Numbered from the stretch's first letter, positions 1 to 37,455 are shown. The stretch is DNA of 64,000 nucleotides from an uncultured Mycoplasmatota bacterium (GCA_900551105.1 URUT01000001.1:857-64856), one strand, 5' to 3'. Program-made: numbers and translations. The notes: generated by a model not told the origin, from the sequence alone.

Positions 1-780
1 ACAAAAACGGATAAATTTGAAAATCATTTTTCTGACACCACAGATTCTTCATACGATAATGGCTTAGATAATTATCATTATACATGTTTTTCTACTAGTA
101 GAACCTGTTCTAGCGTTTCCTACATATATTCACTTTGGTATTCATCATCATTATATATTTTTTATTTAACGCTAGAAAATGGAAACACTATTGAAACTGC
201 TCTAAACGAAATGCTATTTGCAGACGATGTTAACTCAACTAATTCTGAGTTAAAAACAATAGTTGATAACTGGTATAAAACAAACATGACTTCTGCTACA
301 AATTATTTAGAAAATACAATCTTTTGTGCTAACCGTAATATTAATGATTATGGTGGATTTAATCCGAATGGTGGAAATCTAACATCTAATTTTCTGTTAA
401 ACTATACAACATTAACTTGTTCTAACAAGTTGGACCAATATACATTAAAAGTATCAGCTGGCGGAACAGCAAATTATGGAAACAATGCCTTAGACTATCC
501 AGTTGGCCTTTATAACGTTAAAGAAGCTCTGCTTTCATCAAATAATAATAAAGCAGGTTCCTTTTTAACTAGTAATAATTTATATTATTTAATAAATAAT
601 TTTGGAATAACATCATCAGGTTTTTTACAACCTGGCTTCGTTAACAAAAGGGGGGTAGCAATAAGCTATGTTACAGGCGAAAAAATGGGCATCAGGCCCG
701 TAGTATCTCTTCGTACAGATATCATTCTAACTGGCGGTACAGGGGAGGCTGACAATCCATATACTGTATCTCTTCCTTAA
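1..780 (+). CDS. 3' part of a secreted-protein family member, 5' end outside the window. Paralog of the 31039, 35193 and 36850 genes.
   Basis: Frame 1 is open from nt 1 with no stop before 778. The C-terminus ...GIRPVVSLRTDIILTGGTGEADNPYTVSLP matches the conserved tails ...GVRPTISIPSSTKVGGNGTADDPYIVQ and ...AIRPSITLDKNTASTGSGTSSDPYVVK of the downstream paralogs. The internal WY..N / C.N / GL...E motifs also align. Confidence 0.6.
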   Translation, partial: TKTDKFENHFSDTTDSSYDNGLDNYHYTCFSTSRTCSSVSYIYSLWYSSSLYIFYLTLENGNTIETALNEMLFADDVNSTNSELKTIVDNWYKTNMTSATNYLENTIFCANRNINDYGGFNPNGGNLTSNFLLNYTTLTCSNKLDQYTLKVSAGGTANYGNNALDYPVGLYNVKEALLSSNNNKAGSFLTSNNLYYLINNFGITSSGFLQPGFVNKRGVAISYVTGEKMGIRPVVSLRTDIILTGGTGEADNPYTVSLP

Positions 781-804
781 GTATCTAAAATAAAAATATC
801 GGAC

Positions 805-1167
805 TTAATTGCCCGATTTTTGTATACCTAAACTAGCACCTATTAAAGATGATAAACAAATAATAATATAATAAATTAGTGTATTAAACTGATAATGATT
901 ATGAAATAGTAAACTAAATACAAACATAAATAGTGAAAGAATAACACCTAATGCAAGACCATGTATAAATCCTCTTTTACTTACTGTCTTGCCCAGTTTA
1001 TAGCCACTATATAAAGCAATAACTCCAAAAAAGATAATTGTAATAAGCTTAGTAGAAAACACTCCAAATAAATTAAGAATTGCTAAAATTAATGGAAAAG
1101 CAAAAACAAATACTAAAGGAATAACTAATATTTTTAAATAATTTATAATTAAATTCAAAATAACCAC
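805..1167 (-). CDS. small integral membrane protein, hypothetical
   Basis: 120-aa ORF made almost entirely of hydrophobic helices. No recognisable catalytic motif. Confidence 0.4.
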   Translation of the reverse strand: MVILNLIINYLKILVIPLVFVFAFPLILAILNLFGVFSTKLITIIFFGVIALYSGYKLGKTVSKRGFIHGLALGVILSLFMFVFSLLFHNHYQFNTLIYYIIICLSSLIGASLGIQKSGN

Positions 1168-1188
1168 CTAGTAAAATCTATGTGGCTA

Positions 1189-1551
1189 TTATTTTTTTAT
1201 GCAAAGATTAGCAGCACTATTATAAGCTCTAAGTAAATTTGAAGCCCCAAGTTTAACCCCACCATAATATCTTACTACTAATAATAAATATCCATCTAAA
1301 CTATTTCGCTCTAAAATATTAAAGAAAGCAAGACCAATACCACCTGGTTCTTTATCATCACTTTTGCCACCTGTATTATTAACTTTATAAGCATAGGGAA
1401 CATGTCTATACCCCTTATTTTCATCTTTTACATAAGAAATAATACTAGCAACATCTTCTTTACTATCTATTTTAAAAAGCATACCAATAAACTTAGATTT
1501 CTTTTGAACAACTAAAGAATCACTAATTAAATTAAAATTCATAACAATCAC
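1189..1551 (-). CDS. yigZ: IMPACT / YigZ-family N-terminal domain protein (UPF0029), short form
   Basis: The motifs SKFIGMLF, YRHVPYAYKV, DDKEPGGIGLAFFNIL and LLLVVRYYGGVKLGASNLLRAY match the YigZ/IMPACT N-domain pattern (RHHC.AW, SDDGEP.GTAG, VVVRYYGGI.LG.GGL.RAY). The ORF is only 120 aa, so the usual C-terminal domain is absent. Confidence 0.6.
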   Translation of the reverse strand: MIVMNFNLISDSLVVQKKSKFIGMLFKIDSKEDVASIISYVKDENKGYRHVPYAYKVNNTGGKSDDKEPGGIGLAFFNILERNSLDGYLLLVVRYYGGVKLGASNLLRAYNSAANLCIKK

Positions 1552-1610
1552 AAAAAAATTATATCAAAATTTAAGTAATAATAAAACCTAAAATGTGTTA
1601 AAATAAAACT

Positions 1611-3399: not shown

Positions 3400-3421
3400 A
3401 TAAAAAAAATATAACTTATCG

Positions 3422-5962: not shown

Positions 5963-5964
5963 TT

Positions 5965-15000: not shown

Positions 15001-15699
15001 ATGAAAAAGTGGTATTATTTTTTACTCAGTTTTTGCTTAATACTATTAATTAGCTCATCAGCAATGATACTAGTGCATAAAAATAATGAAGAAAAATTAA
15101 ATGTTATCGCACTAGAAGGAAAAATTGACGAAACTAAAGAAGAAAATTTAAAGGAAAAATATTATAACTTTAGACAAGAGTATCAAAATGATGACATAAT
15201 TGGCAGTATCAACATTCCTGGGACTGATATTAATACCTTGTTTGTTAAACCATCAAATAATTCTTATTATTTAACGCACACTTTAAAAAAAGAAAAAAGT
15301 CGAATTGGTGCTGTATTTATGGACTACCGAAATACATTTGATGACAAACAAATTAATATATATGGTCATAATTCAAATAAATATGACGTAGCATTTAAAA
15401 ATCTAAGATTATACTTAGACAATGAATTTACTGAAAAAAATAATTTAATATATATTGAAACTGAAGACGGTATTACAACATACGAAGTATTTTCTGTAAA
15501 AAGAACCAAAGAAAAAGAACACATGACATTAAAAACTAATGATTTTCTAGGCCACATTAATAAAATTAGAGAAAATGCTTTATATAATAAAAATATTAAC
15601 ATTACCGAATCTGATGATATTTTAATTCTTCAAACATGTTTGCTTGATGGAACAAGAGATTATCTTATTGTTAGTAGTAGGAAATTAACCAATCTTTAA
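15001..15699 (+). CDS. srtB: class B sortase
   Basis: N-terminal signal-anchor, catalytic His in IYGHNSN, TLxTC-like active-site Cys in ILILQTCLLDG, and a conserved Arg (TRDYLIVSSRK). The 232-aa size is typical of class B. Confidence 0.7.
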   Translation: MKKWYYFLLSFCLILLISSSAMILVHKNNEEKLNVIALEGKIDETKEENLKEKYYNFRQEYQNDDIIGSINIPGTDINTLFVKPSNNSYYLTHTLKKEKSRIGAVFMDYRNTFDDKQINIYGHNSNKYDVAFKNLRLYLDNEFTEKNNLIYIETEDGITTYEVFSVKRTKEKEHMTLKTNDFLGHINKIRENALYNKNINITESDDILILQTCLLDGTRDYLIVSSRKLTNL

Positions 15700-15735
15700 A
15701 AGATTGTTTAATATAGATTTAGGAGGGAAAAGGTT

Positions 15736-20049: not shown

Positions 20050-20059
20050 GATTGCTACC

Positions 20060-20101: not shown

Positions 20102-20168
20102 TATACTTTAATATGATAAAGTAACAATAGAAAAAAAGGAATCTTAAAACTATGGTCAGGGGGTCTTA

Positions 20169-21056: not shown

Positions 21057-21075
21057 AATACAATAAATGAGTTTT

Positions 21076-21105
21076 GATAGTTCCATATTGTGGAACTATT
21101 TTTAT
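21076..21105 (+). terminator. intrinsic terminator
   Basis: Stem AGTTCCA / TGGAACT with loop tattg, then ATTTTTAT. Confidence 0.55.
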
Positions 21106-21309
21106 CTTATTAATGGTGAATTTTTGTTAGAATAATTACGACCCATATATAACTCTTTTGTGTAATTTTTCTAGACATGACATATTATACAATAGGTTAA
21201 TATTTCGAATATCCAAATTGAAATTTATATTTATTTCTGATTTCACAATAAAAATACACATAATATAAAACCAACTTGTAAAAAAGCTGCTTTTGTGTTA
21301 CTATGAATA

Positions 21310-21426
21310 TGTCAAGGAAACTTGCATAAAATAAAAAAAGGGAATACTTAACTTTGCCGAGTTGAGTACTTGCCCATATTTATGGTAAAGCACTTAATCT
21401 ATGCTAGATTGAGTGCTGTTTTTCTT
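21310..21426 (+). ncRNA. small RNA, repeat-family copy 1: putative antisense RNA / antitoxin of a type I TA-like module
   Basis: Extended -10 promoter (TGtTACTAT at 21296-21304). The conserved 5' segment GTCAAGGAAACTTGCATAAAATAAAAAAGG follows. It ends with a 13-bp terminator hairpin AGCACTTAATCTA-tgc-TAGATTGAGTGCT plus a T-run (21389-21426). The same architecture recurs at about 21790 and about 25296, with compensatory changes in the stem. Confidence 0.5.
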
Positions 21427-21436
21427 ATATAGTTTA

Positions 21437-21520
21437 CTACTTTACTAAAGTAAAAAGTAAGGCTATTAGTAAGAAGATAATAATGATTAAAGAAGAGATT
21501 AAAAAATCTTTCTTGTGCAT
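21437..21520 (-). CDS. 27-aa hydrophobic peptide MHKKDFLISSLIIIIFLLIALLFTLVK, candidate type I toxin
   Basis: Strong SD GGAGG sits 9 nt before the ATG. The ORF is convergent with the + strand sRNA and ends 10 nt from its terminator hairpin. The SD can pair with an upstream CCTCC (CCTCC-aactatataaggaa-GGAGG) to form a sequestering hairpin. A paralogous peptide is at 21911-21982. Confidence 0.45.
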   Translation of the reverse strand: MHKKDFLISSLIIIIFLLIALLFTLVK

Positions 21521-21789
21521 AACTATCAGCCTCCTTCCTTATATAGTTGGAGGCAAGCACTCAACAGTTAAATATTTCCCTGTAAAAATTGTACTATATA
21601 AATTTTTACATAACAAGCGAACAATAGAAAATTTTTGTAAAAAATATTAAAATTATGTTAGTTAATAGTGATTATACTAACTATTTCTTTTACCCTAGAA
21701 ATTGTTCTACTTCTTCCTTTAGGACACTAAATTGTTTAATAATATAAAACCAACTTGTAAAAAAAGCTGCTTTTGTGTTATTATGAATA

Positions 21790-21901
21790 TGTCAAGGAAA
21801 CTTGCATAAAATAAAAAAGGAACATTCAATATTGCACTGTTGAGTGTAGCCAAAAATATGGGTTCCACCTAAATCATTGCTGAGTTAGGTGGATTTCTTT
21901 T
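21790..21901 (+). ncRNA. small RNA, repeat-family copy 2
   Basis: Extended -10 (TGtTATTAT, 21776-21784), the same conserved 5' segment, and a terminator hairpin CCACCTAAATCA-ttgc-TGAGTTAGGTGG (21865-21892) plus a T-run. The stem differs from copy 1 but still pairs. Confidence 0.5.
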
Positions 21902-21910
21902 ATATTAAAG

Positions 21911-21982
21911 CTATAAATAACAATAATAATAAAAGAAGATAATAATTACTAAAGCTAAGACTAAAAAATCTTTCTTATTCAT
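21911..21982 (-). CDS. 23-aa hydrophobic peptide MNKKDFLVLALVIIIFFYYYCYL, candidate type I toxin
   Basis: SD GGGAGG lies 8 nt before the ATG. The ORF is convergent with sRNA copy 2. Its N-terminus M.KKDFL and RBS context are conserved with the copy-1 peptide. Confidence 0.45.
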   Translation of the reverse strand: MNKKDFLVLALVIIIFFYYYCYL

Positions 21983-22107
21983 CTTTATCGCCTCCCTTCT
22001 TATTGAAGTTCGGCTCCATCCAACTTATTAAACGTTCCTTACTTGCAATGACAACAAACAAGTGTTTGAAATGTAAGATTTTTTTTAAGATGATTAAGGG
22101 TGATAAA

Positions 22108-23340
22108 ATGACAAAATATATAACTTTAAAAAACACTAATTTTGAAATTCTAGTTCCTGCAACATTAAAAACTTATGGAGAAGAAGTATTAAAATATTCA
22201 TCAAAAAAGTTAAAAGAATATTTATTGTTTTTTAAAGAGAAACCTAAGGATATAAAAATAAAAGGCTCCTTTTTAACCAATTATAGTGACTTTATAAATA
22301 GAATAAAAGAAGTATCAGGACCAAACGTTCAACTACCACCAGATTGGGCAACTGGCTGCTTTTATGGTGGTGAAATTCAAATTTTACTTGACGAAAATAA
22401 ACCATACGAAAAATTTACTACTCTTGCTCACGAAACATTTCATATATTATTTTCTAAATTCATTTATGAAAAATACAATATAAGTAGAATAGTATGGCTT
22501 GATGAAGCTCTAGCTAGTAGCTTTGATGGTACCACCGAAAAATTAATTAAAGATAATACTTTTAAAGACATAGTAAATAAATTAATAAATAATGAAAAAC
22601 TTCCTAAATTAAACAATTTATCTTTTGCTAAAGGCAACATCGTAAGCGATGAGTATAACGGCTATGACTTATTTAAAGTAGTTGGTAGATACCTAATTGA
22701 AACCAAAAGTAATTTACTGTCATATATCAAAAACGAAGAACAAATTTTAAACGATGGAGAAACTTTATTAGATGAAAGCATTAACTACTTTAAATCAAAA
22801 TATAATTTAAGCAAAAATTATTATTGGCTTTACAAAACACCAAAAAGCTTAGATGATTTAATCATGAATAGTGATGGTACATCTTTAACAAGGCTCTGCT
22901 TTATTAACTCTAAAGATGAAAAGAAATGTAGCTTAAATGGTATCAAAGAATTTTTACCAATTTTTAAAGAAACCTCTGCTTGGTTAGATATTTATTTTAA
23001 GGGGCAAATTCCAAATTTTACACCAAAATACAAAATAGATAATTTAACTCTATTTAGACAGGAAGTAATTGATATTATGAATACTATTCCTTACGGAAAA
23101 ACGATAACCTATAATGCCATTGCTAAATCTATTGCTAAAAAAAGGAAAATATCAAAAATGTCAGGGCAAGCAGTAGGTGGAGCCGTAGGATGGAACCCAA
23201 TTTGTATCATCATCCCATGTCATAGAGTAGTAGGAGCAAATGGCAATTTAACTGGCTATGGTGGCGGCCTAAACAATAAAATAGAACTTTTAAAAATAGA
23301 AAAAAATAATATGCAAGATTTTCATCTTCCGAAGATTTAG
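22108..23340 (+). CDS. fusion protein: N-terminal HExxH (zinc-metallopeptidase-like) domain plus C-terminal methylated-DNA--protein-cysteine methyltransferase (Ogt/MGMT) domain
   Basis: The C-terminal 90 aa carry the MGMT DNA-binding and active-site signature (IPYGKTITYNAIAKSI...SGQAVGGAVGWNPICIIIPCHRVVGANG...GYGGGLNNKIELLKIE). The N-terminal region of about 320 aa contains TLAHETFHILF (HExxH) and has no MGMT N-domain. The start is chosen at ATG 22108 (RBS AAGGGTGA); the ORF is open from 22003. Confidence 0.65.
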   Translation: MTKYITLKNTNFEILVPATLKTYGEEVLKYSSKKLKEYLLFFKEKPKDIKIKGSFLTNYSDFINRIKEVSGPNVQLPPDWATGCFYGGEIQILLDENKPYEKFTTLAHETFHILFSKFIYEKYNISRIVWLDEALASSFDGTTEKLIKDNTFKDIVNKLINNEKLPKLNNLSFAKGNIVSDEYNGYDLFKVVGRYLIETKSNLLSYIKNEEQILNDGETLLDESINYFKSKYNLSKNYYWLYKTPKSLDDLIMNSDGTSLTRLCFINSKDEKKCSLNGIKEFLPIFKETSAWLDIYFKGQIPNFTPKYKIDNLTLFRQEVIDIMNTIPYGKTITYNAIAKSIAKKRKISKMSGQAVGGAVGWNPICIIIPCHRVVGANGNLTGYGGGLNNKIELLKIEKNNMQDFHLPKI

Positions 23341-23388
23341 ATAGTATAATTTTCCTTAAACTACAAAAAATAAAAAGGGAGGAAAATT

Positions 23389-23604
23389 ATGAATAAAGTA
23401 CCAAATATAATTAGTACAAAAGATTTAGATTATCTAAGTGACATGTTTAACTGGAACTACGGCGCATACAAATCTTGCATCAATATGCTTGAAGAAATCA
23501 CTGATCAAAAGCTATGTAATTTAGCTTCAAAATGTGCAAAATTATTTGCAACTAACATGGATAATGTTTTAAACATTCTAGAAAGTGGTGAAGCAAATGA
23601 ATAA
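23389..23604 (+). CDS. CotF-like (Coat_F domain) spore coat protein, small
   Basis: Coat_F pattern (DLDYLSDMF..E..AYKSC....EEITDQKL) in a 71-aa ORF. It is paired and overlapping with the next Coat_F gene, as is typical. Confidence 0.5.
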   Translation: MNKVPNIISTKDLDYLSDMFNWNYGAYKSCINMLEEITDQKLCNLASKCAKLFATNMDNVLNILESGEANE

Positions 23605-23920
23605 AAATATGGTTCAAAATAAAAAAACAACCACGCCAAAAGGTATTTGTTTAAACGATAAAGATTATATGAATAGTATCTTATCATCTCTTAAAGAAAT
23701 GAGTAAGAATTACACAGTAGCGCTAACTGAAGCTAGTAATGAAACTTTATTTAAATCAATAAAAAAAGATTTTGACAATATCATTAAAATGCAAAGAGAA
23801 GTTTATGAAGAAATGTTTACAAATGGCTGGTATGCTTTAGAAAAATCTGAAACCACAAAAATCAAAACTAAATATGATATGTTATGTACTGAACTAAGTG
23901 ATTTAGAAAGTGAGGAATAA
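23585..23920 (+). CDS. CotF-like (Coat_F domain) spore coat protein
   Basis: LNDKDYMNSILSSLKEMSKNYTVALTEASNETLFKSIKKDF......EEMFTNGWY matches the Coat_F consensus (lnD.D.l...L...K...a....Ea.n..lr.....f......e.f..M...GWY). Confidence 0.6.
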   Translation: MVKQMNKNMVQNKKTTTPKGICLNDKDYMNSILSSLKEMSKNYTVALTEASNETLFKSIKKDFDNIIKMQREVYEEMFTNGWYALEKSETTKIKTKYDMLCTELSDLESEE

Positions 23921-23969
23921 TCCTCATTTTTTCTTTTATTTTATCAAAAACATGATATAATACTTATAT

Positions 23970-24045
23970 GCTGAAATAGCTCAATCGGTAGAGCAACGCC
24001 CTCGTAACGCGTAGGTTGTAGGTTCAAGTCCTATTTTCAGCACCA
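23970..24045 (+). tRNA. tRNA-Thr(CGU)
   Basis: A 76-nt canonical cloverleaf. Acceptor GCTGAAA / TTTCAGC is perfect. D-arm GCTC-AATCGGTA-GAGC. Anticodon loop CU-CGU-AA. T-arm GTAGG-TTCAAGT-CCTAT. Discriminator A and CCA are encoded. Confidence 0.85.
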
Positions 24046-25258: not shown

Positions 25259-25295
25259 AACTTGAAAAGAGATCTTCTTTTTTGTATAATGTATT

Positions 25296-25407
25296 TGTCA
25301 AGGAAACTTGCATAAAATAAAAAAGGAACATCTAATTTTAGCAGGTTGGGGGTTGTCGATATGTTGGTTTCACCTAAATCATTGCTGAGTTAGGTGATTT
25401 TCTTTTT
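25296..25407 (+). ncRNA. small RNA / 5' leader, repeat-family copy 3, upstream of the DUF1848-like gene
   Basis: Extended -10 (TGtATAAT, 25282-25290), the conserved GTCAAGGAAACTTGCATAAAATAAAAAAGGAACAT segment, and a terminator hairpin TCACCTAAATCA-ttgc-TGAGTTAGGTGA (25370-25397) plus T-run. This copy has no opposite-strand peptide ORF, and the next gene starts at 25472. Confidence 0.5.
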
Positions 25408-25471
25408 ATACTAAAACTACGAATAGTAATAATACTAATAGGAAGATAATAATGATTAAGGAGCGAAATCT

Positions 25472-30100: not shown

Positions 30101-30894
30101 GAGTAGGCCAAGTAATAGAAAACATTAATAACATCAAACTATTATTACCAGATAATACTAAAAGCATTACTAAAATGAATGACTTAATTGCTGCAAATAA
30201 TAACACTATCAATAATCTAAGTGCACTAAATAGTACTATTAAAGAAAAATACGATAGTGCCAATTTAAAAGAATTATCTTATGAACTAATCTTAGGAAAT
30301 GATTCTTTAGATAATAATACTAAAATAACCTTAATTAACTTAAAAAGCGAATATGAAAACCACTATGATAGTAATAATCAGTTAATCAGCCTATTAAAAT
30401 TAAACGTTTCTGCTCTAGAAAGTAACATTAAAGAATTAGAAAGCTTAAGTGCTAAAGTAACCCAAATGTTACCAAAGATGGAAGCAGGCATCAGTAAACT
30501 TAAAACTGGTACTACTAGTTTAAGCACTAATATGGCAAAACTAAATGTTGCAACTAACGAGTTAAATATCAAAGGAAAAACATTAGTAATTGGCACAACT
30601 AATTTAGAAGAAGGTTTAAAAACTTTAAACGAAGGAATAACAATGTTAAATAATGAAGCTATCAAACCTATCACTAACAAAATAACTAATGAATTAATTC
30701 CTATGACAACTAGAGTAAAAGAACTAACAAAACTAGGGGAAAATTACACATCATTTGCTGGCAGTAATGTAACCGGCGAAACTAAATTCATCTATGTAAT
30801 CGACGGTGAAAAAGTTAAGGAAGAAAAAAATTCCACAGAAGAAAAGACTGAAAAAGACAATCTTTGGACAAGAATCAAAAATTTATTCAAATAG
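27124..30894 (+). CDS. MMPL-family membrane transporter fused in frame to a YhgE/Pip-like extracellular coiled-coil domain
   Basis: Two MMPL/SSD-type TM bundles in the first 700 aa. An internal signal-peptide-like segment (MKNKKLALCSLIALSIPLNTFA, at about nt 29188) has its own RBS but no preceding stop codon. A roughly 560-aa ectodomain with heptad-repeat coiled coils follows (LNTNVKKLSDALTSLDENVTALKNGSVDIDNG...). Confidence 0.6.
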   Translation: MRKMDKLSEFITKKSKLILILSLILLGFSFIGMKLTKINYDILVYLPDDIETIKGQNILTDDFSMGSYSIAVIENASPKEILNIEEKIKKVDGVNEVASIYDVFGTNIPLEILPEDVLEKVHNDNTDLLIVTFKDSTSNENTISAVEEIRNLTNDNYKFGGMSSMVLDTMNLSEKEIAVYVTIAVILCLIVLELSLDSYLVPVLLLLNIGMAIVYNLGTNIFLGEISYITKALVAVLQLGVTTDFSIFLYHAYEKNKKTDSKEIAMKKAIKETIVSVIGSSTTTIAGFLVLCTMSLTLGKDLGIVMAKGVALGVITVLTVFPALLLFFDKQIARTSHKVLTPKFDKINKQIVKHHKLIFIIFLILLVPAYLANSKVEVYYKIDKTLPETLESITANTILKEKYNIVSPEMIITSKDLKTNDIKNMVREIKQIDGIDFVLSKSDFDDLGISSNMLPSEISSLFESENYQMFLVNSTYEVASDELNEQVVKVNDIVKKYDKNGIVAGEGPLMKDLINISDTDFNNVNTSSIVCIFVILFIVLKSFSLPFLLILAIEFAICANMGISYFSGKVLPFVAPIVLGTIQLGATIDYAILMTTTYLEKRKTQRKEDAVLATLNQCGSSVFVSGLCFFAATFGVGVYSQLEMVGSLCTLISRGALLSMLVVITVLPSILLIFDKIIQKTNIGKEKIMKNKKLALCSLIALSIPLNTFALTKNETVYNKLYPDGTIKTSFVNEELLNTSNLKEINDVTSLEDIINLSGNETFTKTNDKLTWNASGNNIFYQGKTTKKEPISFKVTYKLDGQDILLKDLLGKSGKVEIKIEYTNNSKKSVKINNNYETMYTPFVVLTSISLNNDCKNISITNGKIINNGTGNVAFAIASPNLSDSLNINSLNTLNKTVITYDTTKFELGTIYSVITPKLLNSSDLSKLNNITGVNSKLAELTENVNKIENGSTDLKDGSIKLNTNVKKLSDALTSLDENVTALKNGSVDIDNGVGQVIENINNIKLLLPDNTKSITKMNDLIAANNNTINNLSALNSTIKEKYDSANLKELSYELILGNDSLDNNTKITLINLKSEYENHYDSNNQLISLLKLNVSALESNIKELESLSAKVTQMLPKMEAGISKLKTGTTSLSTNMAKLNVATNELNIKGKTLVIGTTNLEEGLKTLNEGITMLNNEAIKPITNKITNELIPMTTRVKELTKLGENYTSFAGSNVTGETKFIYVIDGEKVKEEKNSTEEKTEKDNLWTRIKNLFK

Positions 30895-30921
30895 AAATGT
30901 GCTAAATAAGGCACATTTTTT
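30895..30921 (+). terminator. intrinsic terminator
   Basis: Stem AAATGTGC / GCACATTT with an 8-nt loop, then TTTT. Confidence 0.6.
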
Positions 30922-30950
30922 GAGTAAATTGTGGTAAAACGGAAAATTTT

Positions 30951-31015
30951 AGAGGTAACTTCTCACGCGAGTTTTCCACACTCCCAGTTGACACGGGGGG
31001 GGGTTGTTATATAAT
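30951..31015 (+). promoter_or_regulatory. promoter of paralog A with a poly-G spacer (candidate phase-variation switch), preceded by an inverted-repeat operator-like site
   Basis: Inverted repeat AGAGGT-A-ACTTCT (30951-30963). The -35 is TTGACA (30988-30993), the 16-nt spacer is c+G9+ttgtta with G9 at 30995-31003, and the -10 is TATAAT (31010-31015). The pseudogene copy at 36767-36826 keeps the palindrome (AGAAGT-A-ACTTCT) and TATAAT but has only G4 and a degraded -35. Confidence 0.55.
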
Positions 31016-31038
31016 AAAAGAAGAAAATAGGTGGTAAA

Positions 31039-32727
31039 GTGAAAAATAAAAGTGTATCACTCGTTCTTCTTTTGAGTGTATTCGTAGTTATAGCTGGTGT
31101 CATATTTTTAAAAAATTATGAAAGTGAAACTTTAGTAGAAGCTAAATGGAACGAAAAAGAAGACGCACTTTTGGCAATAACCATTGATGGCAAAGAATCT
31201 GATAGCTTTCCAACTAACTCTGGATATGTCGGTACAGTAACATGTAATAATGCTACAGGTACTACATCTTGGAATGGAAGTAAATGGGTATTTAATGTAA
31301 CTGGTATTACCAAAAATAAAACAAGATGTAATGTAGCATTTATTAAAAGCCAGGCTCTAAAACTTGCAATACTAGGAGAAAATAATGCTAACCTTAGCAC
31401 AACTATTACAGTTCCAGGAAGGGATGTAAACGCATATAAATTAGAAGACGCTGAAACGAAAACAAAAGAATTATCTACTAGTTATCAAAATTACTATTAT
31501 ACATATGGTACTGGCTGGCAAGCAAATGGTATAAATTTCACTCTTACTGGTACAGCTGTAACTAACAGCACTTATGCTACTTCTTACGAAACCCTAAAAG
31601 GTAAGTACACACTTTCATTTAGTGAAACAACATCGTCTTCACCAACCCCGGTAGACACTAGTGAAACAAATTGTATTAATTATATCATAGATACAACCCC
31701 AACCACTATAACATACAAAGAATTATGTTCAAATAAGAACCAAACTGAAGCAGTTCTTGCTAGTACCCAAGATGACTACGGAACATCTTATTACTACAGG
31801 GGAGCAATAACAAATAACTATGTTCAGTATGCAAATATGTGCTGGAGAATAGTAAGAATTACTGGCAATGATGCTGTTAAGCTGGTCTTACATAACTATA
31901 ATGGATTAACAGATTCAAACACTACTCCAACAAGTCAAACACCATGCAGTGTAGTAGGAGATGAACTAAGTTATGCCAGATTTGAAGGCGATACATTTAC
32001 TACATCTTTTAATAGTGACATGGATGATAACGCATTTGTCGGCTTAAAATATGGAACGAAATCCTCATCAAGTTACGCAGCAACTCATGCAAACACCAAC
32101 GCAAGCGCAATTCTTCAAGCTTTATGGAAATGGTACGATAATGTTTTATCTAAACAATCAGGATTTAATGAAAATAATCTAGTTGATACCATTGTTTGTA
32201 ACGATAAAAAAGTAATAACTAATACTACATTTAATCCATATGATATGGGCTTAGGAACCAGTTACGGCTACAAAAAAAATTCAAATTATTATGGTGCTAT
32301 GCCAAGATTTCTAAACAATGATGGATCATCTTATGGAACTGGTCCAAGCCTAGTATGCCAAACTGATAACAACGGTGGAAAACTATCAAAATTTACCTAC
32401 AGCGATACAACAAAAGGAAATGGTACTCTAGGCCGTAAAATCGGATTATTAACCGCAGACGAAATAACATTTGCAGGAGCACAATATGGTAGTGGAAAAG
32501 CACCGAGAGATTACTTAAATGAAAACGATAAGTACGGAATGTGGACATCAACTCCAGGATACGTAAATACCTATGGAACGCCTGCCAATATTATGGTGTG
32601 GGGAAACGGTGGCCTTGGTTCTACGCCAGTTGTTCAGCCGTGGGGCGTAAGACCAACAATATCTATACCATCATCAACTAAAGTAGGTGGAAATGGAACG
32701 GCTGATGACCCATATATTGTTCAGTAA
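31039..32727 (+). CDS. secreted / signal-anchored protein, paralog family member A
   Basis: GTG start after RBS AGGTGG. N-terminal signal-anchor MKNKSVSLVLLLSVFVVIAGVIFL and conserved N-terminal module TLVEAKWNEKEDALLAITIDGKESDSFPT...TCN..TG..SWNGSKW in a 562-aa ORF. The conserved C-terminal tail is GVRPTISIPSSTKVGGNGTADDPYIVQ. Confidence 0.7.
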   Translation: MKNKSVSLVLLLSVFVVIAGVIFLKNYESETLVEAKWNEKEDALLAITIDGKESDSFPTNSGYVGTVTCNNATGTTSWNGSKWVFNVTGITKNKTRCNVAFIKSQALKLAILGENNANLSTTITVPGRDVNAYKLEDAETKTKELSTSYQNYYYTYGTGWQANGINFTLTGTAVTNSTYATSYETLKGKYTLSFSETTSSSPTPVDTSETNCINYIIDTTPTTITYKELCSNKNQTEAVLASTQDDYGTSYYYRGAITNNYVQYANMCWRIVRITGNDAVKLVLHNYNGLTDSNTTPTSQTPCSVVGDELSYARFEGDTFTTSFNSDMDDNAFVGLKYGTKSSSSYAATHANTNASAILQALWKWYDNVLSKQSGFNENNLVDTIVCNDKKVITNTTFNPYDMGLGTSYGYKKNSNYYGAMPRFLNNDGSSYGTGPSLVCQTDNNGGKLSKFTYSDTTKGNGTLGRKIGLLTADEITFAGAQYGSGKAPRDYLNENDKYGMWTSTPGYVNTYGTPANIMVWGNGGLGSTPVVQPWGVRPTISIPSSTKVGGNGTADDPYIVQ

Positions 32728-32802
32728 ATAAAAAGATATTTATCATTAATCTGCTTGATTTGTCAAAAAAAATATAGTATCCTATTTATAGGAGGATAAA
32801 TT

Positions 32803-33351
32803 ATGTGGTGGATTATAATAATCGTTGTTTTAGTTTTAATTATATTATCTATTATTTCTACATACAATGAATTAGTAAGACTAAGAAATAAAGTAAAAGA
32901 TCAGTGGTCACAAATTGATGTACAACTTAAAAGAAGATGCGACCTTATCCCTAATTTAGTAGAAACTGTAAAAGGTTATGCTAAACATGAAAAAGGCACA
33001 TTAGAAGCTGTTATCAAAGCTAGAAATACATTCTTAACTGCTAAAAGTCCTGAAGATGAAATGAAAGCATCTAAAGAAATAACAACTGCACTAAACAAAT
33101 TATTTGCTTTAGCAGAAGCTTACCCAGACTTAAAAGCAAATGAAAATTTCACATCTTTACAAAATACTTTATCTGAAACTGAAGATAAAATTTCTTATGC
33201 AAGACAATTCTATAATGATAATGTAATGAACTACAAAAACAAAATAGAAATGTTTCCGTCTAACATAGTTGCTGGTATCTTTAATTTTAAACCAGAGCCA
33301 TTCTTTGAAGCAACTGAAGAGGAAAGAAAAAATGTTGAAGTAAAATTTTAG
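32803..33351 (+). CDS. lemA: LemA-family protein
   Basis: N-terminal TM, then LemA signature (NELVRLRNKVKDQWSQIDVQLKRRCDLIPNLVETVKGYAKHEKGTLEAV) in a 182-aa ORF. Confidence 0.8.
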   Translation: MWWIIIIVVLVLIILSIISTYNELVRLRNKVKDQWSQIDVQLKRRCDLIPNLVETVKGYAKHEKGTLEAVIKARNTFLTAKSPEDEMKASKEITTALNKLFALAEAYPDLKANENFTSLQNTLSETEDKISYARQFYNDNVMNYKNKIEMFPSNIVAGIFNFKPEPFFEATEEERKNVEVKF

Positions 33352-33386
33352 GCTTACAAGTTAAGCCTTTTTTGGTAGGAGAGAAT

Positions 33387-35084
33387 ATGAGGAAATGGTT
33401 TAGTTTAATAATAATTAGTTTATTTTTATTTATTCCAAGTGTTTGTGCTAATAGTATAAAAAACATAAACATGGATATTTATATTGATGATGAGGGAGAT
33501 GCTCACGTCAAAGAAGTTTGGCAAGTTCGTGCAACTAAAGGTACAGAAATATATAAAACATATAATAATATTGGAGAATCAACATTCACCGACTTTAAAG
33601 TCAGACTAAACGGAACTGAGTTTACTAACATTGGTTCTTGGAATGTAAATGGAAGCTTTGATGATAAGGCTTACAAAAATGGTATTCATTATATAAGTGA
33701 CGGTTTAGAACTATGCTATGGCATAAGCGAATATGGAAATAACATTTATGAATTTGAATATATTATTACCGATTTTGTAGTAAACCTAAATGATAGTCAA
33801 ATGGTTTACTGGACACTAGTTCCTAAAAATATGAGTGATACAATTGGTGATGTGTATATAAAAATTCATTCATCCTTTGCGTATAAGGACACTTTAGATA
33901 TTTGGGGTTATGGTAAATATGGAGCTCCAGCCTATGTATATGATGGCTATATAGAAATGTCTAGTGATAACTTAGATAATGATGAGTATATGACTGCTCT
34001 TATAAAATTTGAACCAAATACTTTTAATACTACCTATAAAATAGACAAAGATTTTTCATATTATTATGATTTGGCTGAAGATGGATCAGATGATTACAAA
34101 GAACCAACAACCCTTGAAAAATTTTTGACGGGGCTAATTAATCTTTCAATTATTGGTTTCATATTTTATCTAATAGCAGTTGCTATAAATCGTTCAACTA
34201 TTAAAAGTACAAGATACAATAAAAGTAAAAAGAAACTGCCAGCAGACATTCCATATTTTAGAGACATTCCTGGTAAAAAAGAATTGTTTAGAAATTACTA
34301 TATTTCAAATTTATATGGAATAATTTTACAAAAATCAGATTTTTTAGGTGCAGTTCTTCTTAAATGGATGAAAGAAGGCTCAGTAACCATTGAAAAAACC
34401 GAAAAGAAAGGGCTCTTTAAGAAAACAAATATTGTAACAGCTATGAAAATAGGAGATGTTGTCTGCAATAATTCTTTAGAAAAAGAATTATATGATATGA
34501 TTAAATCTGCTGCTAAAGATGATTATTTAGAAAGCGACGAATTTAAAAAATGGTCAAGAAACCATTATGATAAATTACTATCATGGTTTGATAAAACCTT
34601 AAATTATCAAGGCGATGCTCTTATTTTAGATGGTTCCATCGAAAGAAATGAAACACAAAAAATGCTATTTAAAAATGTAACATTTACGGAAAACGAAAGT
34701 GTATTAAATGAAGCTATTCAGTTAGCTGGCCTAAAGAAATACCTTATTGAGTTTTCTAATATGAAAGAAAAAGAAGCAATAGAGGTTCATCTATGGCAAG
34801 ATTATTTAATATACGCTCAAATGTTTGGAATAGCCAAAAGAGTAGCCGAACAATTTAAAAAGATGTATCCAGAAATCATTGAACAAACCAATTATAATTT
34901 TGATTTTGATACAGTAGTTTTTATTAATGATTTTTCTAGAAGTGCAGTTTCTAGTGCGAACGCTGCAAGAAGTGCTGCAATTGAAAGAGCAAGAAACTAC
35001 TCATCAGGTGGCGGCGGCTTCTCATCAGGCGGTGGCGGAGGAGGTTCCTTCGGTGGCGGCTCTGGTGGCGGTGGCTTTAGATAA
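33387..35084 (+). CDS. DUF2207-domain membrane protein with a C-terminal Gly-rich tail
   Basis: Signal peptide, N-terminal ectodomain, TM helix (LINLSIIGFIFYLIAVAI) and C-terminal GGGGFSSGGGGGGSFGGGSGGGGFR in a 565-aa ORF. It follows lemA, which is the usual pairing. Start placed at ATG 33387 (RBS AGGAGAG). Confidence 0.7.
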   Translation: MRKWFSLIIISLFLFIPSVCANSIKNINMDIYIDDEGDAHVKEVWQVRATKGTEIYKTYNNIGESTFTDFKVRLNGTEFTNIGSWNVNGSFDDKAYKNGIHYISDGLELCYGISEYGNNIYEFEYIITDFVVNLNDSQMVYWTLVPKNMSDTIGDVYIKIHSSFAYKDTLDIWGYGKYGAPAYVYDGYIEMSSDNLDNDEYMTALIKFEPNTFNTTYKIDKDFSYYYDLAEDGSDDYKEPTTLEKFLTGLINLSIIGFIFYLIAVAINRSTIKSTRYNKSKKKLPADIPYFRDIPGKKELFRNYYISNLYGIILQKSDFLGAVLLKWMKEGSVTIEKTEKKGLFKKTNIVTAMKIGDVVCNNSLEKELYDMIKSAAKDDYLESDEFKKWSRNHYDKLLSWFDKTLNYQGDALILDGSIERNETQKMLFKNVTFTENESVLNEAIQLAGLKKYLIEFSNMKEKEAIEVHLWQDYLIYAQMFGIAKRVAEQFKKMYPEIIEQTNYNFDFDTVVFINDFSRSAVSSANAARSAAIERARNYSSGGGGFSSGGGGGGSFGGGSGGGGFR

Positions 35085-35192
35085 CACCCACTAAAAATTA
35101 AAACCCCATTACAAAAAAATAATGGAGTTTTTATAATTTAGATTGTCTTGACTAATAACCTAAATTTGTTATAGAATATACATAGAAAATAG

Positions 35193-36644
35193 GTGATATC
35201 AGTGAATAACAAATATAAAGGATTAAGTATTATCTTAATATTGTTAGTATTAACATTTATCGGTTATAATGCCTTAAAACAAGAAGAATTAAAAGAAGCA
35301 ACTTGGGAAAAACCAGAAGAAATATTAGCAATCACAATAAATGGCGAAGAAGCCACATCTTTTCCAACCACGGCAGCATACGAAGCTAGTGTAACTTGTA
35401 CAAGTGGCACTGGTAGTGCTTCATGGAATGGAAGCAAGTGGACATTCAATGCAAGTTCAATTTCCAAAAACAAAGCAAAATGCAACATAGACTTTATTCC
35501 CAAAACTCTTAGATCTTATATTTTGGGTGACAATAACGCCAACGTTGGAACTGTAAAAACAACACCAGGAGCCTCAAATAACTCAACATCAGAAGCAGTT
35601 TTAGCATCAACTCAAGATGATTATGGAACAAGTTATTATTTTAGAGGAGTTGTAACTAAAAATTTTGTTGTGTACGCAAATATGTGCTGGCGTGTAGTAA
35701 GAATTACAGGCGACGGTTCAGTAAGATTAGTATTATATAATTATAATGGATTAACAAGTGATAATACGACACCATCTGCTAGTAATCCCTGCAGTGTTAC
35801 TGGTGATGAACTAGCCTTCATTCATGATAGCAGTGGGACCTCAATGGTTAGATTTGGAATATATGGAGATAATGCTGGCTTTGGTTTAATGTATGGTGAT
35901 GTTGGATGCTCTGATGGCACATCATATGATAAAACAAGTTGCTCAAATAATAGCGGTACGTGGACAACATCAACCTCGTATGCAAATGCTCATAGCAACA
36001 TTAGAAAAAGTACGGTTTTACAAAGTTTAGAAAGTTGGTACGATGATGTTTTGTCTAAACAGCCAGGCTTTAGTGAAAAACAACTAGCAGATACTATTTT
36101 ATGCAATGATAAAAGCGTTATAACAGACAGCTCATTTAATCCAGCAGGATGGACAACTTTTCCAAGTGATTATGGAATTGGAACAAATAACAATCATTAT
36201 GCAAGCATTAAAAGACTTGTAACATCAAGCTCCATGAAAGCTGGTGGCACCGGACCAAGCCTAATATGTCCTAATGATAACTTAGGCGGAAAATTATCTA
36301 AATTTACAGTAAGCGATACCGTCAACGGGAATGGTGCCTTAGATAAAAAAATTGGTCTCTTAACAGTTGATGAATCAGCATTTGCTGGAGGAATATATGG
36401 AGCTTATAATTCGTCTTACTATCTTTATCAAAATGCAAAAGAAGCATATTGGTTAGCTACTCCAGGAATATTTTTTAATCCTTCTAATAATCACTGGGTT
36501 GCATATAACTCTACTGCTAACGGACACTATTTATATGTTGTACTTAATGTCAATGTTTACGCAATCCGACCATCAATTACTCTGGATAAAAATACAGCAT
36601 CAACTGGTAGTGGAACATCATCAGATCCTTATGTTGTTAAATAA
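35193..36644 (+). CDS. secreted / signal-anchored protein, paralog family member B
   Basis: Same architecture as 31039 in a 483-aa ORF, with conserved blocks TWEKPEEILAITINGEEATSFPT, SWNGSKWTF and YGTSYYFRGVVT.NFV.YANMCWRVVRITGDG, and tail AIRPSITLDKNTASTGSGTSSDPYVVK. GTG start at 35193 or 35202. Confidence 0.7.
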   Translation: MISVNNKYKGLSIILILLVLTFIGYNALKQEELKEATWEKPEEILAITINGEEATSFPTTAAYEASVTCTSGTGSASWNGSKWTFNASSISKNKAKCNIDFIPKTLRSYILGDNNANVGTVKTTPGASNNSTSEAVLASTQDDYGTSYYFRGVVTKNFVVYANMCWRVVRITGDGSVRLVLYNYNGLTSDNTTPSASNPCSVTGDELAFIHDSSGTSMVRFGIYGDNAGFGLMYGDVGCSDGTSYDKTSCSNNSGTWTTSTSYANAHSNIRKSTVLQSLESWYDDVLSKQPGFSEKQLADTILCNDKSVITDSSFNPAGWTTFPSDYGIGTNNNHYASIKRLVTSSSMKAGGTGPSLICPNDNLGGKLSKFTVSDTVNGNGALDKKIGLLTVDESAFAGGIYGAYNSSYYLYQNAKEAYWLATPGIFFNPSNNHWVAYNSTANGHYLYVVLNVNVYAIRPSITLDKNTASTGSGTSSDPYVVK

Positions 36645-36671
36645 TATAATTATTAATTTTAATAGATTCAT

Positions 36672-36720
36672 TAAATCCTATAAAGTAGTACACAGAACCT
36701 TTCAGGTCTGCGTACTTTTT
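36672..36720 (+). terminator. intrinsic terminator after paralog B
   Basis: Imperfect stem GTAGTACACAGAACC / GGTCTGCGTACT followed by TTTTTATTTT. Confidence 0.45.
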
Positions 36721-36849
36721 ATTTTGCTTAAAGAAAAAAAGAACTTACGGCAAATGCAAAATTTCTAGAAGTAACTTCTCGGTAAGTTTTCACACTTTAG
36801 GTGGAAACGGGGAGTTGCTATATAATGAAAGAAGAAAATAGGTGGTAAA

Positions 36850-37455
36850 ATGAAAAATAAAAGCTTATCAATCATTCTTCTTTTGAGTGTGTTCGTAGTA
36901 ATAACTAGTGTTATTTTCTTAAAAAAATATATTAGTGAAACTTTAGTAGAAGCCAAATGGAACGAAAAAGAGGACGCCATGTTAGCAATTACAATAAATG
37001 GTGAAGAAGTAGATAGTTTTCCAACTACGGCAGGATATGTAGGTAAAGTTACTTGCACAAAGGGAACAGGAAGTGCTTCCTGGAACGGTACCAAGTGATT
37101 ATTTAGCGTAACAAGTATTACCAAAAATAAAACTAGATGTAATATAGATTTCAGCGTGCCAACACTAAGAGAGGCAATTTTAAATGCAAATGCTATATCA
37201 TCTCCTTCAACAACGCCAGGAACTAAAGCCTCAGCATCTACAGAAAGCATATTAGCAAGTGCTTCTGATGATTATGGAACGAACTATTATTTTAGAGGAG
37301 TAGTTACTAATAACTATGTAGAATATGCCAATATGTGCTTTCGAATCATAAGAATTACTGGAAACGGTGCAGTTAAATTAACATTATATAATTATAATGG
37401 ACTAACAGATAGTAATACAGTGCCAAGCAGCACTACACCTTGTAATGTAACTTAG
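36850..37455 (+). pseudogene. degenerate paralog family member C: in-frame TGA replaces a conserved Trp codon, and the reading frame ends early
   Basis: One reading frame runs 36850-37455. The conserved SKW (TGG) of copies A and B is TGA at 37096-37098 here (GTK*LFSVT). Beyond it the frame still encodes family blocks (YGTNYYFRGVVTNNYVEYANMCFRIIRITGNGAVKLTLYNYNGLTDSN), then stops at PCNVT, where A and B continue for more than 250 aa. Its promoter is degraded (see 30951 feature). Confidence 0.65.

Follow-up and report, generated by a model that had tools for sequence, protein, structure and literature searches.

Sequence analysis suggests a small family of membrane-anchored, lectin-like surface proteins in an uncultured gut bacterium

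Introduction

In Neisseria meningitidis, porA and opc are subject to phase variation through homopolymers in the promoter spacer. The surface-protein gene porA has a poly-G run of polymorphic length (9-11 residues) separating its -35 element from its -10 element, and expression of PorA is full with 11 G, 2-fold lower with 10 G and 13-fold lower with 9 G (PMC3639595). The Vlp proteins of Mycoplasma hyorhinis and the Vmm proteins of M. mycoides form multigene surface families whose genes are switched independently. According to PMC10502178, which cites Citti and Wise 1995 and Persson et al. 2002, their external regions diverge but follow a conserved 5' region made up of a repeat-bearing promoter and a signal sequence. 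The promoter repeat is a homopolymer or a dinucleotide, being poly-A in vlp of M. hyorhinis.

DUF6273 domains, reported to have a C-type-lectin-like fold, occur in phage 'tentaclins' and in Mtd-like targets of diversity-generating retroelements (DGRs). That DGRs target these domains is documented, and the variable region then sits at the domain's C-terminal end (PMC10743442; bioRxiv 10.1101/2024.10.15.618418). Thomasclavelia ramosa, a gut Firmicute, also displays a long DUF6273 region of ~290 aa on its surface, as the N-terminal part of the IgA protease ThomasA; this region had no measurable role in catalysis (PMC12402451).

Here we analyzed a stretch of 64,000 nucleotides from an uncultured Mycoplasmatota bacterium (the window), in which a preliminary description had reported an amplified family of surface proteins. 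Our results suggest that this gut bacterium is host to a small family of membrane-anchored, lectin-like surface proteins, and we compared its genes with the systems above.

Results

Three intact genes and one pseudogene

The family is represented in the window by the following loci.

1-780, plus strand: gene A, its C-terminal 259 codons and stop, a distant family member recognized from its translation
31039-32727, plus strand: gene B, 562 aa, characterized by an AlphaFold2 model, conserved columns, Foldseek and the DUF6273 hits of its relatives
35193-36644, plus strand: gene C, 483 aa, a short form without the insert at residues 105-232 of B, identified by tblastn to B
36850-37455, plus strand: pseudogene D, the first ~200 codons only, interrupted by a nonsense TGA at 37096-37098 and lacking the 3' ~280 codons through deletion

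The paralogous relationship was confirmed. B and C are both intact and 47-51% identical to each other; in tblastn, C matched B with 47% identity over 362 aa (E 5e-89), and the N-terminal 122 aa matched besides. The sequence motifs quoted in the preliminary description were found in B, C and D and are nearly invariant in 43 family members. The four copies that it counted resolve into three intact genes (A, B and C) and one pseudogene (D), with A belonging to a different subfamily. A gave no tblastn match to B, C or D at E 1e-3, and pairwise BLASTP aligned only its last 113-140 aa with B and C, at 26-29% identity (E 2e-5 and 3e-4). The upstream part of A was read from L004, which is identical to the window at 777/777 nt, and from the full-length orthologues P0281 and P0282; full-length A comprises 496-498 aa in related contigs. 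The N-terminal features that had been ascribed to A thus lie outside the window, although both the signal anchor and the N-terminal module are present in the related contigs, and the central block is there too, but as a divergent version. Compared with B, the core of A is 32% identical and the N-terminal module, complete only in the related contigs, 76% identical.

Searches for relatives returned 3,817 representatives of 50%-identity clusters at E<=1e-3, 266 of them at <=1e-30, and their names were only those of hypothetical proteins from Tenericutes/Mycoplasmatota, Bacilli or unclassified bacterial MAGs. The family's genes are scattered among housekeeping genes, and the host has cell-wall genes (sortase, PBP5). 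It uses genetic code table 11: among the 48 plus-strand ORFs listed with 100 aa or more, 4 end in TGA, and TGG encodes Trp at 117/117 positions in these ORFs.

Because this code is in use, the TGA inside D is a real stop. It arose by TGG>TGA replacement of the conserved Trp of WNGSKW, which bears out the earlier view that one copy is decayed, and the ~280 C-terminal codons are missing, since homology stops near 37464. A second strain, L003, has the same nonsense codon and truncation, plus deletions of 2 bp and 1 bp in the in-frame region; these shared lesions and extra indels argue for neutral decay. In GCA_030524925.1, a MAG of a sister species, the orthologue P0008 is intact (457 aa) and occupies the same position, with ArgS following immediately downstream; D is 87% identical to the first 201 aa of P0008. 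Judged from these lesions, D is a dead paralogue, not a donor cassette.

Predicted fold of the ectodomain

In the AlphaFold2 model of B (mean pLDDT 78.5), a signal anchor (1-27) is followed by a beta-sandwich N-module (44-104), an insert domain (105-232), an enlarged DUF6273-like core (233-545) and a connector tail (546-562). The proposed signal anchor was borne out by a K-rich N-terminus and an 18-residue hydrophobic stretch, modeled as a helix at 4-27.

By profile homology and modeled structure, the ectodomain conserved in the family is a DUF6273 domain in an enlarged and divergent form. No Pfam match was obtained for B, for C or for A (as 259-aa or as 432-aa form), all of which stayed under the gathering score of DUF6273 (PF19789; 23.5 bits), and B had none even at E<=1. 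Homology to proteins that pass this threshold was nevertheless found: P0039, with 47% identity to B along its entire length, scored 26.4 bits for DUF6273, above the 23.5 cut-off. DUF6273 matches at E<=1 were obtained for 10 of 43 aligned relatives. The giant relative P0121 aligned to B with a phmmer E of 3e-158, its units corresponding to residues 458-562 of B, and matched DUF6273 at E 6e-37 in 9 stretches. The C-terminal ~100 aa of family members align to DUF6273 profile positions ~60-171. The B model was also structurally similar to predicted DUF6273 proteins: in Foldseek searches of BFVD (viral models), the best four matches had E-values of 3.3e-5 to 1.0e-3, with ranks 2-4 named DUF6273, a name carried by 7 among the 50 matches listed (probability up to 1.0, target TM-score up to 0.56). 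Matches to solved C-type lectin domains were not significant, with E of at least 1.1 and probability of at most 0.14.

The G.G....PY tail, previously likened to a lead-in to beta-helix domains, is not of that kind here; it acts as the connector at the close of every DUF6273-like unit. One relative of 4,905 aa contains it 11 times, ~277 aa apart, and 202 of the 280 relatives first retrieved (B searches and B cluster) end with it.

A variable patch near the C-terminus of B and C

Differences between strains were concentrated in two corresponding stretches.

32494-32643, plus strand: hypervariable patch of B, residues 486-535, consisting of loops plus a beta-hairpin immediately ahead of the GVRPTISI strand
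36444-36560, plus strand: stretch of C matching the B patch, residues 418-456, as seen in the comparison of the window with L003

Between the window and L003, codon differences in the B patch were 16 nonsynonymous versus 4 synonymous, and dN/dS was 0.71 in the patch, a value below 1, versus 0.21 in residues 2-477. Column entropy across 18 B alleles peaks in the patch, the composition of which (50-52% GC, 22-24% A) departs from the window means of 29.6% GC and 40% A. C and its orthologue in L003 share 99.2% identity within the limits of the L003 gene call; across all 483 codons there were five synonymous and four nonsynonymous differences and no others. All four nonsynonymous differences fall inside the 418-456 stretch (418, 419, 438 and 456). 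The synonymous ones are spread over the gene, and codon 407, shortly before the stretch, holds one of the five.

Only 4 patch DNA haplotypes were found in 23 loci, the two common ones each being identical over 10-11 independent samples, and identical B patches occur on backbones differing at 5-16 residues. P0270 and P0002 differ at 8 backbone positions versus 12 in the patch. Replacements between strains form a few discrete allelic types. This pattern may reflect diversifying or balancing selection on a binding face or epitope.

A poly-G tract in the promoter of B

The regions upstream of B, C and D contain the following elements.

30988-31015, plus strand: promoter of B as read from the sequence, -35 TTGACA (30988-30993), 16-nt spacer, -10 TATAAT (31010-31015)
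30995-31003, plus strand: poly-G tract (G9) in the spacer of the B promoter, a candidate slipped-strand contingency repeat
35148-35177, plus strand: candidate promoter of C from its sequence, TTGACT-18-TAGAAT, without a repeat tract
36801-36826, plus strand: decayed promoter of D, recognized by alignment to the sequences that precede B, A and the orthologue of D

The B promoter is the only 12/12 match to the sigma-70 consensus within 30850-37600, and it is kept in all B alleles examined. Its G9 is the only run of at least 9 A/T or at least 7 G/C in the 64-kb window of 29% GC; at the window composition, such a run is calculated to occur ~0.003 times by chance in 64 kb.

The simple repeat between -35 and -10 was polymorphic in length among otherwise near-identical sequences. 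As read from assembly consensus sequences of short-read metagenomes, not from reads, the tract over 16 loci was G9 in nine, G10 in six and G11 in one, giving spacers of 16, 17 and 18 nt, respectively. An interrupted allele, G3(TG)5, was seen in four further loci; it is a real haplotype, because it recurs in four samples with the same 17-nt spacer and a linked SNP. L012 and L014 had 0 mismatches in 3,078 flanking nt, yet carried G11 and G9, and L022 and L025, likewise with 0 mismatches in 3,078 nt, carried G10 and G9, although each of these pairs mixes two assembly pipelines and could stem from the same reads. L011 and L013, from one pipeline, differ at 3 of 3,079 nt and had G9 and G10. As a control, a non-coding A8 tract at 32765, 1.8 kb off, was invariant in 18/18 loci.

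B alleles with protein identities as low as 89% keep the tract at G9-G11. The same cassette also precedes A orthologues, with G8 and G12, and the intact D orthologue, with G6; the promoter of the latter in L031 reads TTGACA-CGA-G6-TTGTTA-TATAAT. The D promoter itself retains a -35 remnant (GTGGAA), an interrupted G run (GGGGAG, 36809-36814; GGGGGG in L003) and the -10 TATAAT (36821-36826). Promoter spacers of 16-18 nt can all be functional, and the effect of the tract on B expression may therefore be graded or small.

Alternative explanations

The length differences could be sequencing or assembly artefacts, the tract being a fixed promoter element or functionless. Short reads are error-prone at G homopolymers, five contigs (L016-L019 and L034) end at the tract or just past it, both zero-mismatch pairs cross pipelines, and the G12 upstream of an A orthologue (L036) rests on 2.6x coverage. 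However, lengths also varied within pipelines (G9, G10 and G11 among scaffold assemblies; G9 and G10 among k141 assemblies), and neither the constant A8 control, the rarity of such a run by chance, the real G3(TG)5 haplotype, nor the upkeep of the tract in divergent B alleles and paralogous promoters fits an artefact well, so that we regard this explanation as unlikely. Improbable, in our view, is that the family consists of extracellular enzymes, e.g. a polymer hydrolase, rather than binding proteins. Invariant polar residues do lie outside the patch (E237, D245, D246, R254, N260, N352, D383, K390, R423, K451, D474 and E475, with H350 at ~90%). Yet B, C and A had no family match in Pfam, NCBIfam or PDB sequences, in agreement with the earlier remark that a catalytic motif is absent; PDB folds gave no enzyme-family match either, significant similarities were only to DUF6273 proteins, and giant relatives carry the unit in tandem 11 or more times, an arrangement typical of repeats in adhesin-like proteins but not of catalytic domains.

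Two mechanisms of programmed variation were also weighed. If the B patch were a DGR variable region, a reverse transcriptase and template repeat would be expected elsewhere in the genome. The patch occupies the C-terminal hairpin and loops where the variable regions of DUF6273 DGR targets lie (PMC10743442), is A-poor and GC-rich, and has many variable codons of the form NNY that change at positions 1 and 2. On the other hand, the window has no second copy of the patch, and no reverse transcriptase was detected in it by Pfam scans of selected ORFs (leaving out short ORFs, several minus-strand ORFs and a few others) and precomputed Pfam annotation of syntenic genes in related contigs, nor within 10 kb on each side of relatives in other genomes (7 kb of flank for P0008). 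The constancy of the common patch haplotypes across independent samples and their occurrence on different backbones count against this mechanism, as do 34 patch adenines that never vary. Among the latter are 8 of 17 four-fold-degenerate third positions, at which mutagenesis directed at adenine would escape selection. The B and C patches are unrelated in sequence, so each would need its own template. In contrast to DGR targets, then, neither a reverse transcriptase with a template repeat (scanned window ORFs) nor adenine-specific hypervariation on identical backbones was found in the sequences examined, and we consider a DGR very unlikely. Silent-cassette systems are exemplified by Borrelia vls, Neisseria pilS and Mycoplasma genitalium MgPar, and the preliminary description, in likening a family with one silent copy to antigenic or receptor variation systems, implied a mechanism of this type, in which an expressed locus would receive sequence from D or other copies through recombination. 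Several paralogues do lie within 37 kb, one not expressed as a full protein, B alleles vary between strains, and the P0270/P0002 comparison fits recombination between population alleles. But DNA identity among B, C and D is only 66-79%, and a search for recombination tracts between copies gave no exact match above 22 nt among the three, the longest being 22 nt for B-D and 19 nt for C-D. D ends before the patch, lacking the C-terminal half, and so cannot supply it; its orthologue is intact at the same locus in the sister species, and inspection of 30700-37600 revealed neither a recombinase gene nor inverted repeats flanking the genes. A silent copy feeding the expressed one, which we hold to be extremely improbable, thus finds no support.

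Discussion

We consider it fairly probable that A, B and C are lectin-like, membrane-anchored surface proteins, that B is phase-variable through its promoter G tract, and that D is dead. A locally amplified, diverging family of membrane-anchored extracellular proteins without a recognizable catalytic family, as first described, is supported. The idea of surface variation stands in part: the poly-G tract in the B promoter and the clustered replacements in the ectodomain favor it, but not by way of a silent copy. In this model, A, B and C would be type-II membrane-anchored proteins whose enlarged, divergent DUF6273 head is borne by the signal anchor and a beta-sandwich stalk that is small and conserved. 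To our knowledge, no ligand is known for any DUF6273 domain; the head might bind, for example, a host or dietary glycan, mucus, another microbe or a phage. A common 5' cassette (TTGACA-C-Gn-TTGTTA-TATAAT promoter, ribosome-binding site, signal anchor and N-module) appears to be joined to divergent heads. By analogy with porA and vlp, slipped-strand mispairing at the G tract could turn B transcription up or down.

The B tract resembles that of porA in position, base and length, but the host belongs to another phylum (a low-GC, Gram-positive-type gut bacterium) and the protein is unrelated. The layout of a conserved 5' region on divergent external regions recalls Vlp and Vmm, and NCBI calls the source MAGs of the present family Tenericutes/Mycoplasmatota. 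Unlike in Vlp, the repeat is poly-G, a signal anchor replaces the lipoprotein, the external part is predicted to be a folded lectin-like domain rather than tandem repeats, and the genes are dispersed among housekeeping genes in a host with cell-wall genes. The B model resembles viral DUF6273 models, but A, B and C fall under Pfam detection, with a domain of ~310 aa versus a 172-position profile, and the family differs from phage and DGR proteins in being chromosomal, membrane-anchored and equipped with its own N-terminal beta-sandwich. ThomasA, in which DUF6273 is fused to an M64 peptidase and sortase-anchored, differs in that the present family has no peptidase. A mutable repeat in a promoter is a known bacterial route to surface variation, of which this family would be a new case.

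The family comprises three intact genes and one pseudogene

The preliminary description proposed a family of four paralogous genes, A to D, with one decayed copy, and our results support this, with a correction for A given below. Three members are listed here; the fourth, A (1-780), is partial.

B, 31039-32727, plus strand: 562 aa, GTG start
C, 35193-36644, plus strand: 483 aa
D, 36850-37455, plus strand: gene fragment

B and C are clear paralogues (E 5e-89; 51% identity over a 324-residue core), C being without the 128-residue insert present at B residues 105-232. In D, the Trp of the WNGSKW motif is replaced by TGA (37096-37098), and similarity ends near 37464, adjoining a terminator-like hairpin and the ArgS promoter. 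An alternative genetic code that rescues D by reading TGA as Trp was rejected, because the code is the standard bacterial one, with TGA terminating 4 of 48 listed plus-strand ORFs (at least 100 aa) and TGG serving as all 117 Trp codons; D is truncated anyway. Gene A was not recovered by tblastn with the other members and aligns with them over its last 113-140 residues only (26-29% identity). We examined L004, a related contig that matches the window across all 777 nt of A, and two full-length A orthologues of 496-498 aa (P0281 and P0282), which showed that full-length A has the same signal anchor and an N-terminal module 76% identical to that of B, with a central block that is recognisable but divergent and a core only 32% identical to B. 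A belongs to a separate subfamily. The paralogy and the full-length A evidence together establish that the family is real, with three intact genes and one pseudogene.

The preliminary description also implied a mechanism in which the decayed member is a silent copy feeding an expressed one. In L003, a syntenic contig from a Hadza gut metagenome, D has the identical nonsense codon and truncation, and additionally 2-bp and 1-bp deletions within the reading frame and a 1-bp deletion upstream of the start. A sister-species MAG (GCA_030524925.1), which has at least seven members of the family, carries an intact D orthologue (P0008, 457 aa, 87% identical) immediately 5' of ArgS. Furthermore, the longest exact match among B, C and D is 22 nt, and the variable half of the protein is missing from D. 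D is therefore a pseudogene and not a cassette. Gene conversion between paralogues was rejected, as identity tracts were absent and third-position identity in the N-terminal module was unremarkable (19/28).

The proteins carry a divergent DUF6273-like core, predicted to be lectin-like

No match to A, B or C was found in Pfam or NCBIfam, a profile search against PDB sequences gave no match at E<=1, and in PHROGs only C matched, weakly, an unannotated phrog. Relatives are abundant: more than 2,670 90%-identity clusters were matched among the scored candidates, and 3,817 50%-identity representatives matched at E<=1e-3, 266 of them at <=1e-30. The broadly conserved portion is B ~233-562, and N-terminal architecture differs among relatives, of which giant ones repeat the unit many times (P0121; 4,905 aa, 22 matched stretches). 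Each unit ends in the G.GT..DPY.V tail, which serves as a connector, occurs 11 times in P0121 with a ~277-aa period and terminates 202 of the first 280 relatives retrieved by B searches and from the B cluster.

The Pfam family DUF6273 was matched by 10 of 43 aligned relatives, with P0039 above the gathering threshold and P0121 matching at E 6e-37 over profile positions ~66-171, equivalent to B 458-545. In an AlphaFold2 model of B (mean pLDDT 78.5), a helix (4-27) is followed by a six-strand beta-sandwich (44-104), a beta-rich insert and the core. Foldseek searches with this model retrieved viral DUF6273 proteins (E 3e-5 to 1e-3) and, from the PDB, only C-type lectin domains, at non-significant scores. 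We therefore place the proteins in DUF6273, as predicted lectin-like proteins of the cell surface.

The beta-sandwich corresponds to an N-terminal module of ~60 residues (window 31168-31350 in B, with equivalents in A, C and D) of the form …VTC..G.G…WNGSKW.FNVT.ITKNKTRCNV.F. It matched no known family, and its conservation between paralogues is far above that of the head (76% vs 32% for A and B). The module may mediate docking to a shared partner or the envelope.

The B promoter contains a poly-G tract of variable length

The only long homopolymer of the 64-kb window is a G9 tract (30995-31003), which sits within the spacer of the region's only perfect sigma-70 consensus, TTGACA-16-TATAAT. This promoter is flanked by a terminator after the upstream MMPL gene and, downstream, by an AGGTGG ribosome-binding site and the GTG start of B. 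Among 25 loci with B alleles, the tract was G9 in nine, G10 in six, G11 in one and G3(TG)5 in four; the five further contigs stop at the tract or just past it. Two pairs, L012/L014 and L022/L025, have no mismatches over 3,078 flanking nt, yet differ in tract length, and L011 and L013, from different samples processed by one pipeline, differ at 3 of 3,079 nt and have G9 and G10, respectively. As a control, the non-coding A8 at 32765 was invariant in 18 of 18 loci. Homopolymer errors and repetition of the cassette described below could account for the breaks in contigs and for part of the tract-length readings.

In four samples (L027-L030), the B spacer reads C-GGG-(TG)5-TTA vs C-G9/10-TGTGTTA, is still 17 nt and has a linked upstream SNP (window equivalent 30994-31009). 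With its homopolymer broken up, G3(TG)5 may represent a "locked" allele of the promoter. An invertible promoter was rejected, as convincing inverted repeats flanking the promoters were absent.

The promoter and 5'UTR of B form a cassette that also lies upstream of A orthologues (G8 in L035; G12 in L036, which has low coverage) and of the intact D orthologue (G6); a degenerate remnant of it is retained by D of the window. The C promoter is different and has no repeat. No repeat tract was found upstream of P0016 (L008) or P0060 (L009 and L010), the two more distant relatives, from other genomes, with readable upstream regions; L002 was excluded from this reading because the locus starts inside the gene.

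In L015 (1-700), an IS element (rve-family transposase and HTH_Tnp_1 gene) takes the place of MMPL directly 5' of the B promoter, the sequence departing just 5' of the -35 box, and in L032 (1-400) the upstream gene is likewise not MMPL. Thus, the B cassette has a variable upstream junction. Many metagenome contigs (L016-L020, L034, L001, L004, L005 and L031) stop inside the shared 5' cassette of A, B or D or no more than ~150 nt from it. These breaks are likely caused by the near-identical ~45-nt promoter/5'UTR repeat, the G tract or both, so that MAGs are likely to under-count family members or to contain them in truncated form.

Amino acid variation is concentrated in a patch of B

B is the most diverged protein of its neighbourhood between the window and L003 (92.7% identity vs 95.6-99.7% for ten neighbours; dN 0.042), and residues 486-535, referred to as the patch, hold 16 of its 41 replacements. 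The dN/dS ratio is 0.71 in the patch, 0.21 in residues 2-477 and 0.05 in the N-terminal module. In C, all four nonsynonymous differences fall within the corresponding stretch (418-456), and five synonymous differences are spread along the gene, one of them, at codon 407, lying just upstream of that stretch. Across 18 B alleles, the patch has 6 of the 14 columns with at least four residue types and the highest mean column entropy; these six columns map to loops and a hairpin tip in the B model.

The patch lies where the variable regions of diversity-generating retroelements (DGRs) are located in DUF6273 proteins. Because of this position, the DUF6273 link, NNY codon changes and the A-poor composition of the patch, we tested whether a DGR diversifies it. 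No second copy (template repeat) of the patch was found in the sequence available. No reverse transcriptase was detected among the scanned or synteny-annotated window ORFs, a set that leaves out short, several minus-strand and a few other ORFs, or near relatives in other genomes. Furthermore, only four patch DNA haplotypes were observed in 23 loci, the two common ones each being identical across 10-11 samples; 34 adenines of the patch are invariant, 8 of the 17 four-fold-degenerate third positions being among these. A DGR was therefore rejected as the present-day mechanism. Identical patches also occur on backbones that differ at 5-16 residues. Altogether, these results fit a few allelic types kept by selection and shuffled by recombination, and do not fit ongoing hypermutation.

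Genomic setting

The window has a GC content of 29%, and its genes are nearly all on the plus strand, the majority being housekeeping genes (UvrC, DnaE, ArgS, RuvAB, SHMT, ThyA, Tgt and others). It also carries a sortase, a 1,335-aa VWA/Big_9/MucBP protein and a PBP5-type carboxypeptidase. Contigs with identical genes originate from human gut metagenomes and MAGs; the B lineage is on record from ENA, NCBI and Logan sources only, not JGI. NCBI source names of relatives are "Tenericutes bacterium", "Mycoplasmatota bacterium", "Bacilli bacterium" or just "bacterium". The order MMPL, B, LemA, DUF2207, C, D, ArgS is also present in L003. No conserved operon partners were found, relatives being placed among unrelated housekeeping genes, and LemA and DUF2207 are a separate common gene pair.

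The sortase gene and the gene for the 1,335-aa protein (VWA_2, Big_9 and MucBP domains) occupy 15001-19743; three internal repeats (~300 nt plus ~90 nt) lie within the latter (17669-19176). The 1,335-aa protein is a second adhesin-like surface protein, unrelated to the A-D family, and with the sortase it shows that this is a cell-walled organism, although related MAGs are labelled "Tenericutes/Mycoplasmatota". The GC peak of the window (34951-35084; up to 61%) codes for the Gly-rich C-terminal tail of the DUF2207 protein, SSGGGGFSSGGGGGGSFGGGSGGGGFR, and thus reflects amino acid composition and not foreign DNA.

Two tRNA-Thr genes (GGT, 19976-20049; CGT, 23970-24045) flank a ~4-kb segment with a KilA-N protein (20169-21056), mini-ORF repeats and a 445-aa protein (22003-23340) whose C-terminus is an O6-methylguanine-DNA methyltransferase domain; the segment (19976-24045) may be a small integrated island. 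An intergenic element of ~130-270 nt occurs in three copies (21292-21560, 21772-22010 and 25278-25462), all of which share a conserved hairpin, CACCTAAATCATTGCTGAGTTAGGTG. The first two encode a small hydrophobic peptide with AAGGAGG upstream, and the third has a similar mini-ORF remnant.

Mini-ORF copy 1, 21437-21520, minus strand: MHKKDFLISSLIIIIFLLIALLFTLVK
Mini-ORF copy 2, 21911-21982, minus strand: MNKKDFLVLALVIIIFFYYYCYL

Rfam gave no match at the three copies, which look like type I toxin-antitoxin loci.

Discussion

Phase variation by simple repeats is best characterised in pathogens, including Neisseria, Haemophilus, Campylobacter and Mycoplasma. The B promoter resembles that of meningococcal porA in having poly-G in its spacer. 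In porA, 11G, 10G and 9G tracts give graded expression (PMC3639595), and by analogy tract length would affect B expression. The layout is also like that of the vlp genes of Mycoplasma hyorhinis, in which every promoter contains a homopolymer and the 5' end is conserved (PMC10502178). A lectin-like DUF6273 protein and a promoter-spacer homopolymer switch are both known kinds; their combination in an uncultured gut lineage is a further instance of these. The earlier suggestion of a variable surface family is retained in part, but the mechanism differs: variation appears to arise from a promoter under repeat control and from allelic diversity of the binding face, and not from recombination with silent cassettes.

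We tentatively consider, as a possible though rather doubtful model, a contingency system of the Vlp type operating in gut relatives of the mollicutes that have cell walls. One 5' cassette (poly-G promoter, signal anchor and Ig-like stalk) would be carried by several dispersed genes, which would switch or be tuned independently and display different lectin-like DUF6273 heads in combination, and the binding face would diversify through ordinary mutation plus selection at the position hypermutated by retroelements in phage homologues. If true, this would be a retroelement-free path to the same outcome, serving for escape from IgA or phage or for a change of glycan target.

Here, the signature of phase variation is read directly from gut metagenomes in public databases, in a commensal lineage that is uncultured (Tenericutes/Mycoplasmatota at NCBI). 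An anonymous family, with no annotation and more than 3,800 clusters, gains DUF6273 as a structural home, a predicted surface location, a candidate variable binding face and a candidate regulatory switch. Finally, the site mutated by DGRs in phage DUF6273 proteins is a natural hot spot also in chromosomal homologues in which no DGR was found, and this shared hot spot is useful in the search for DUF6273 ligands.
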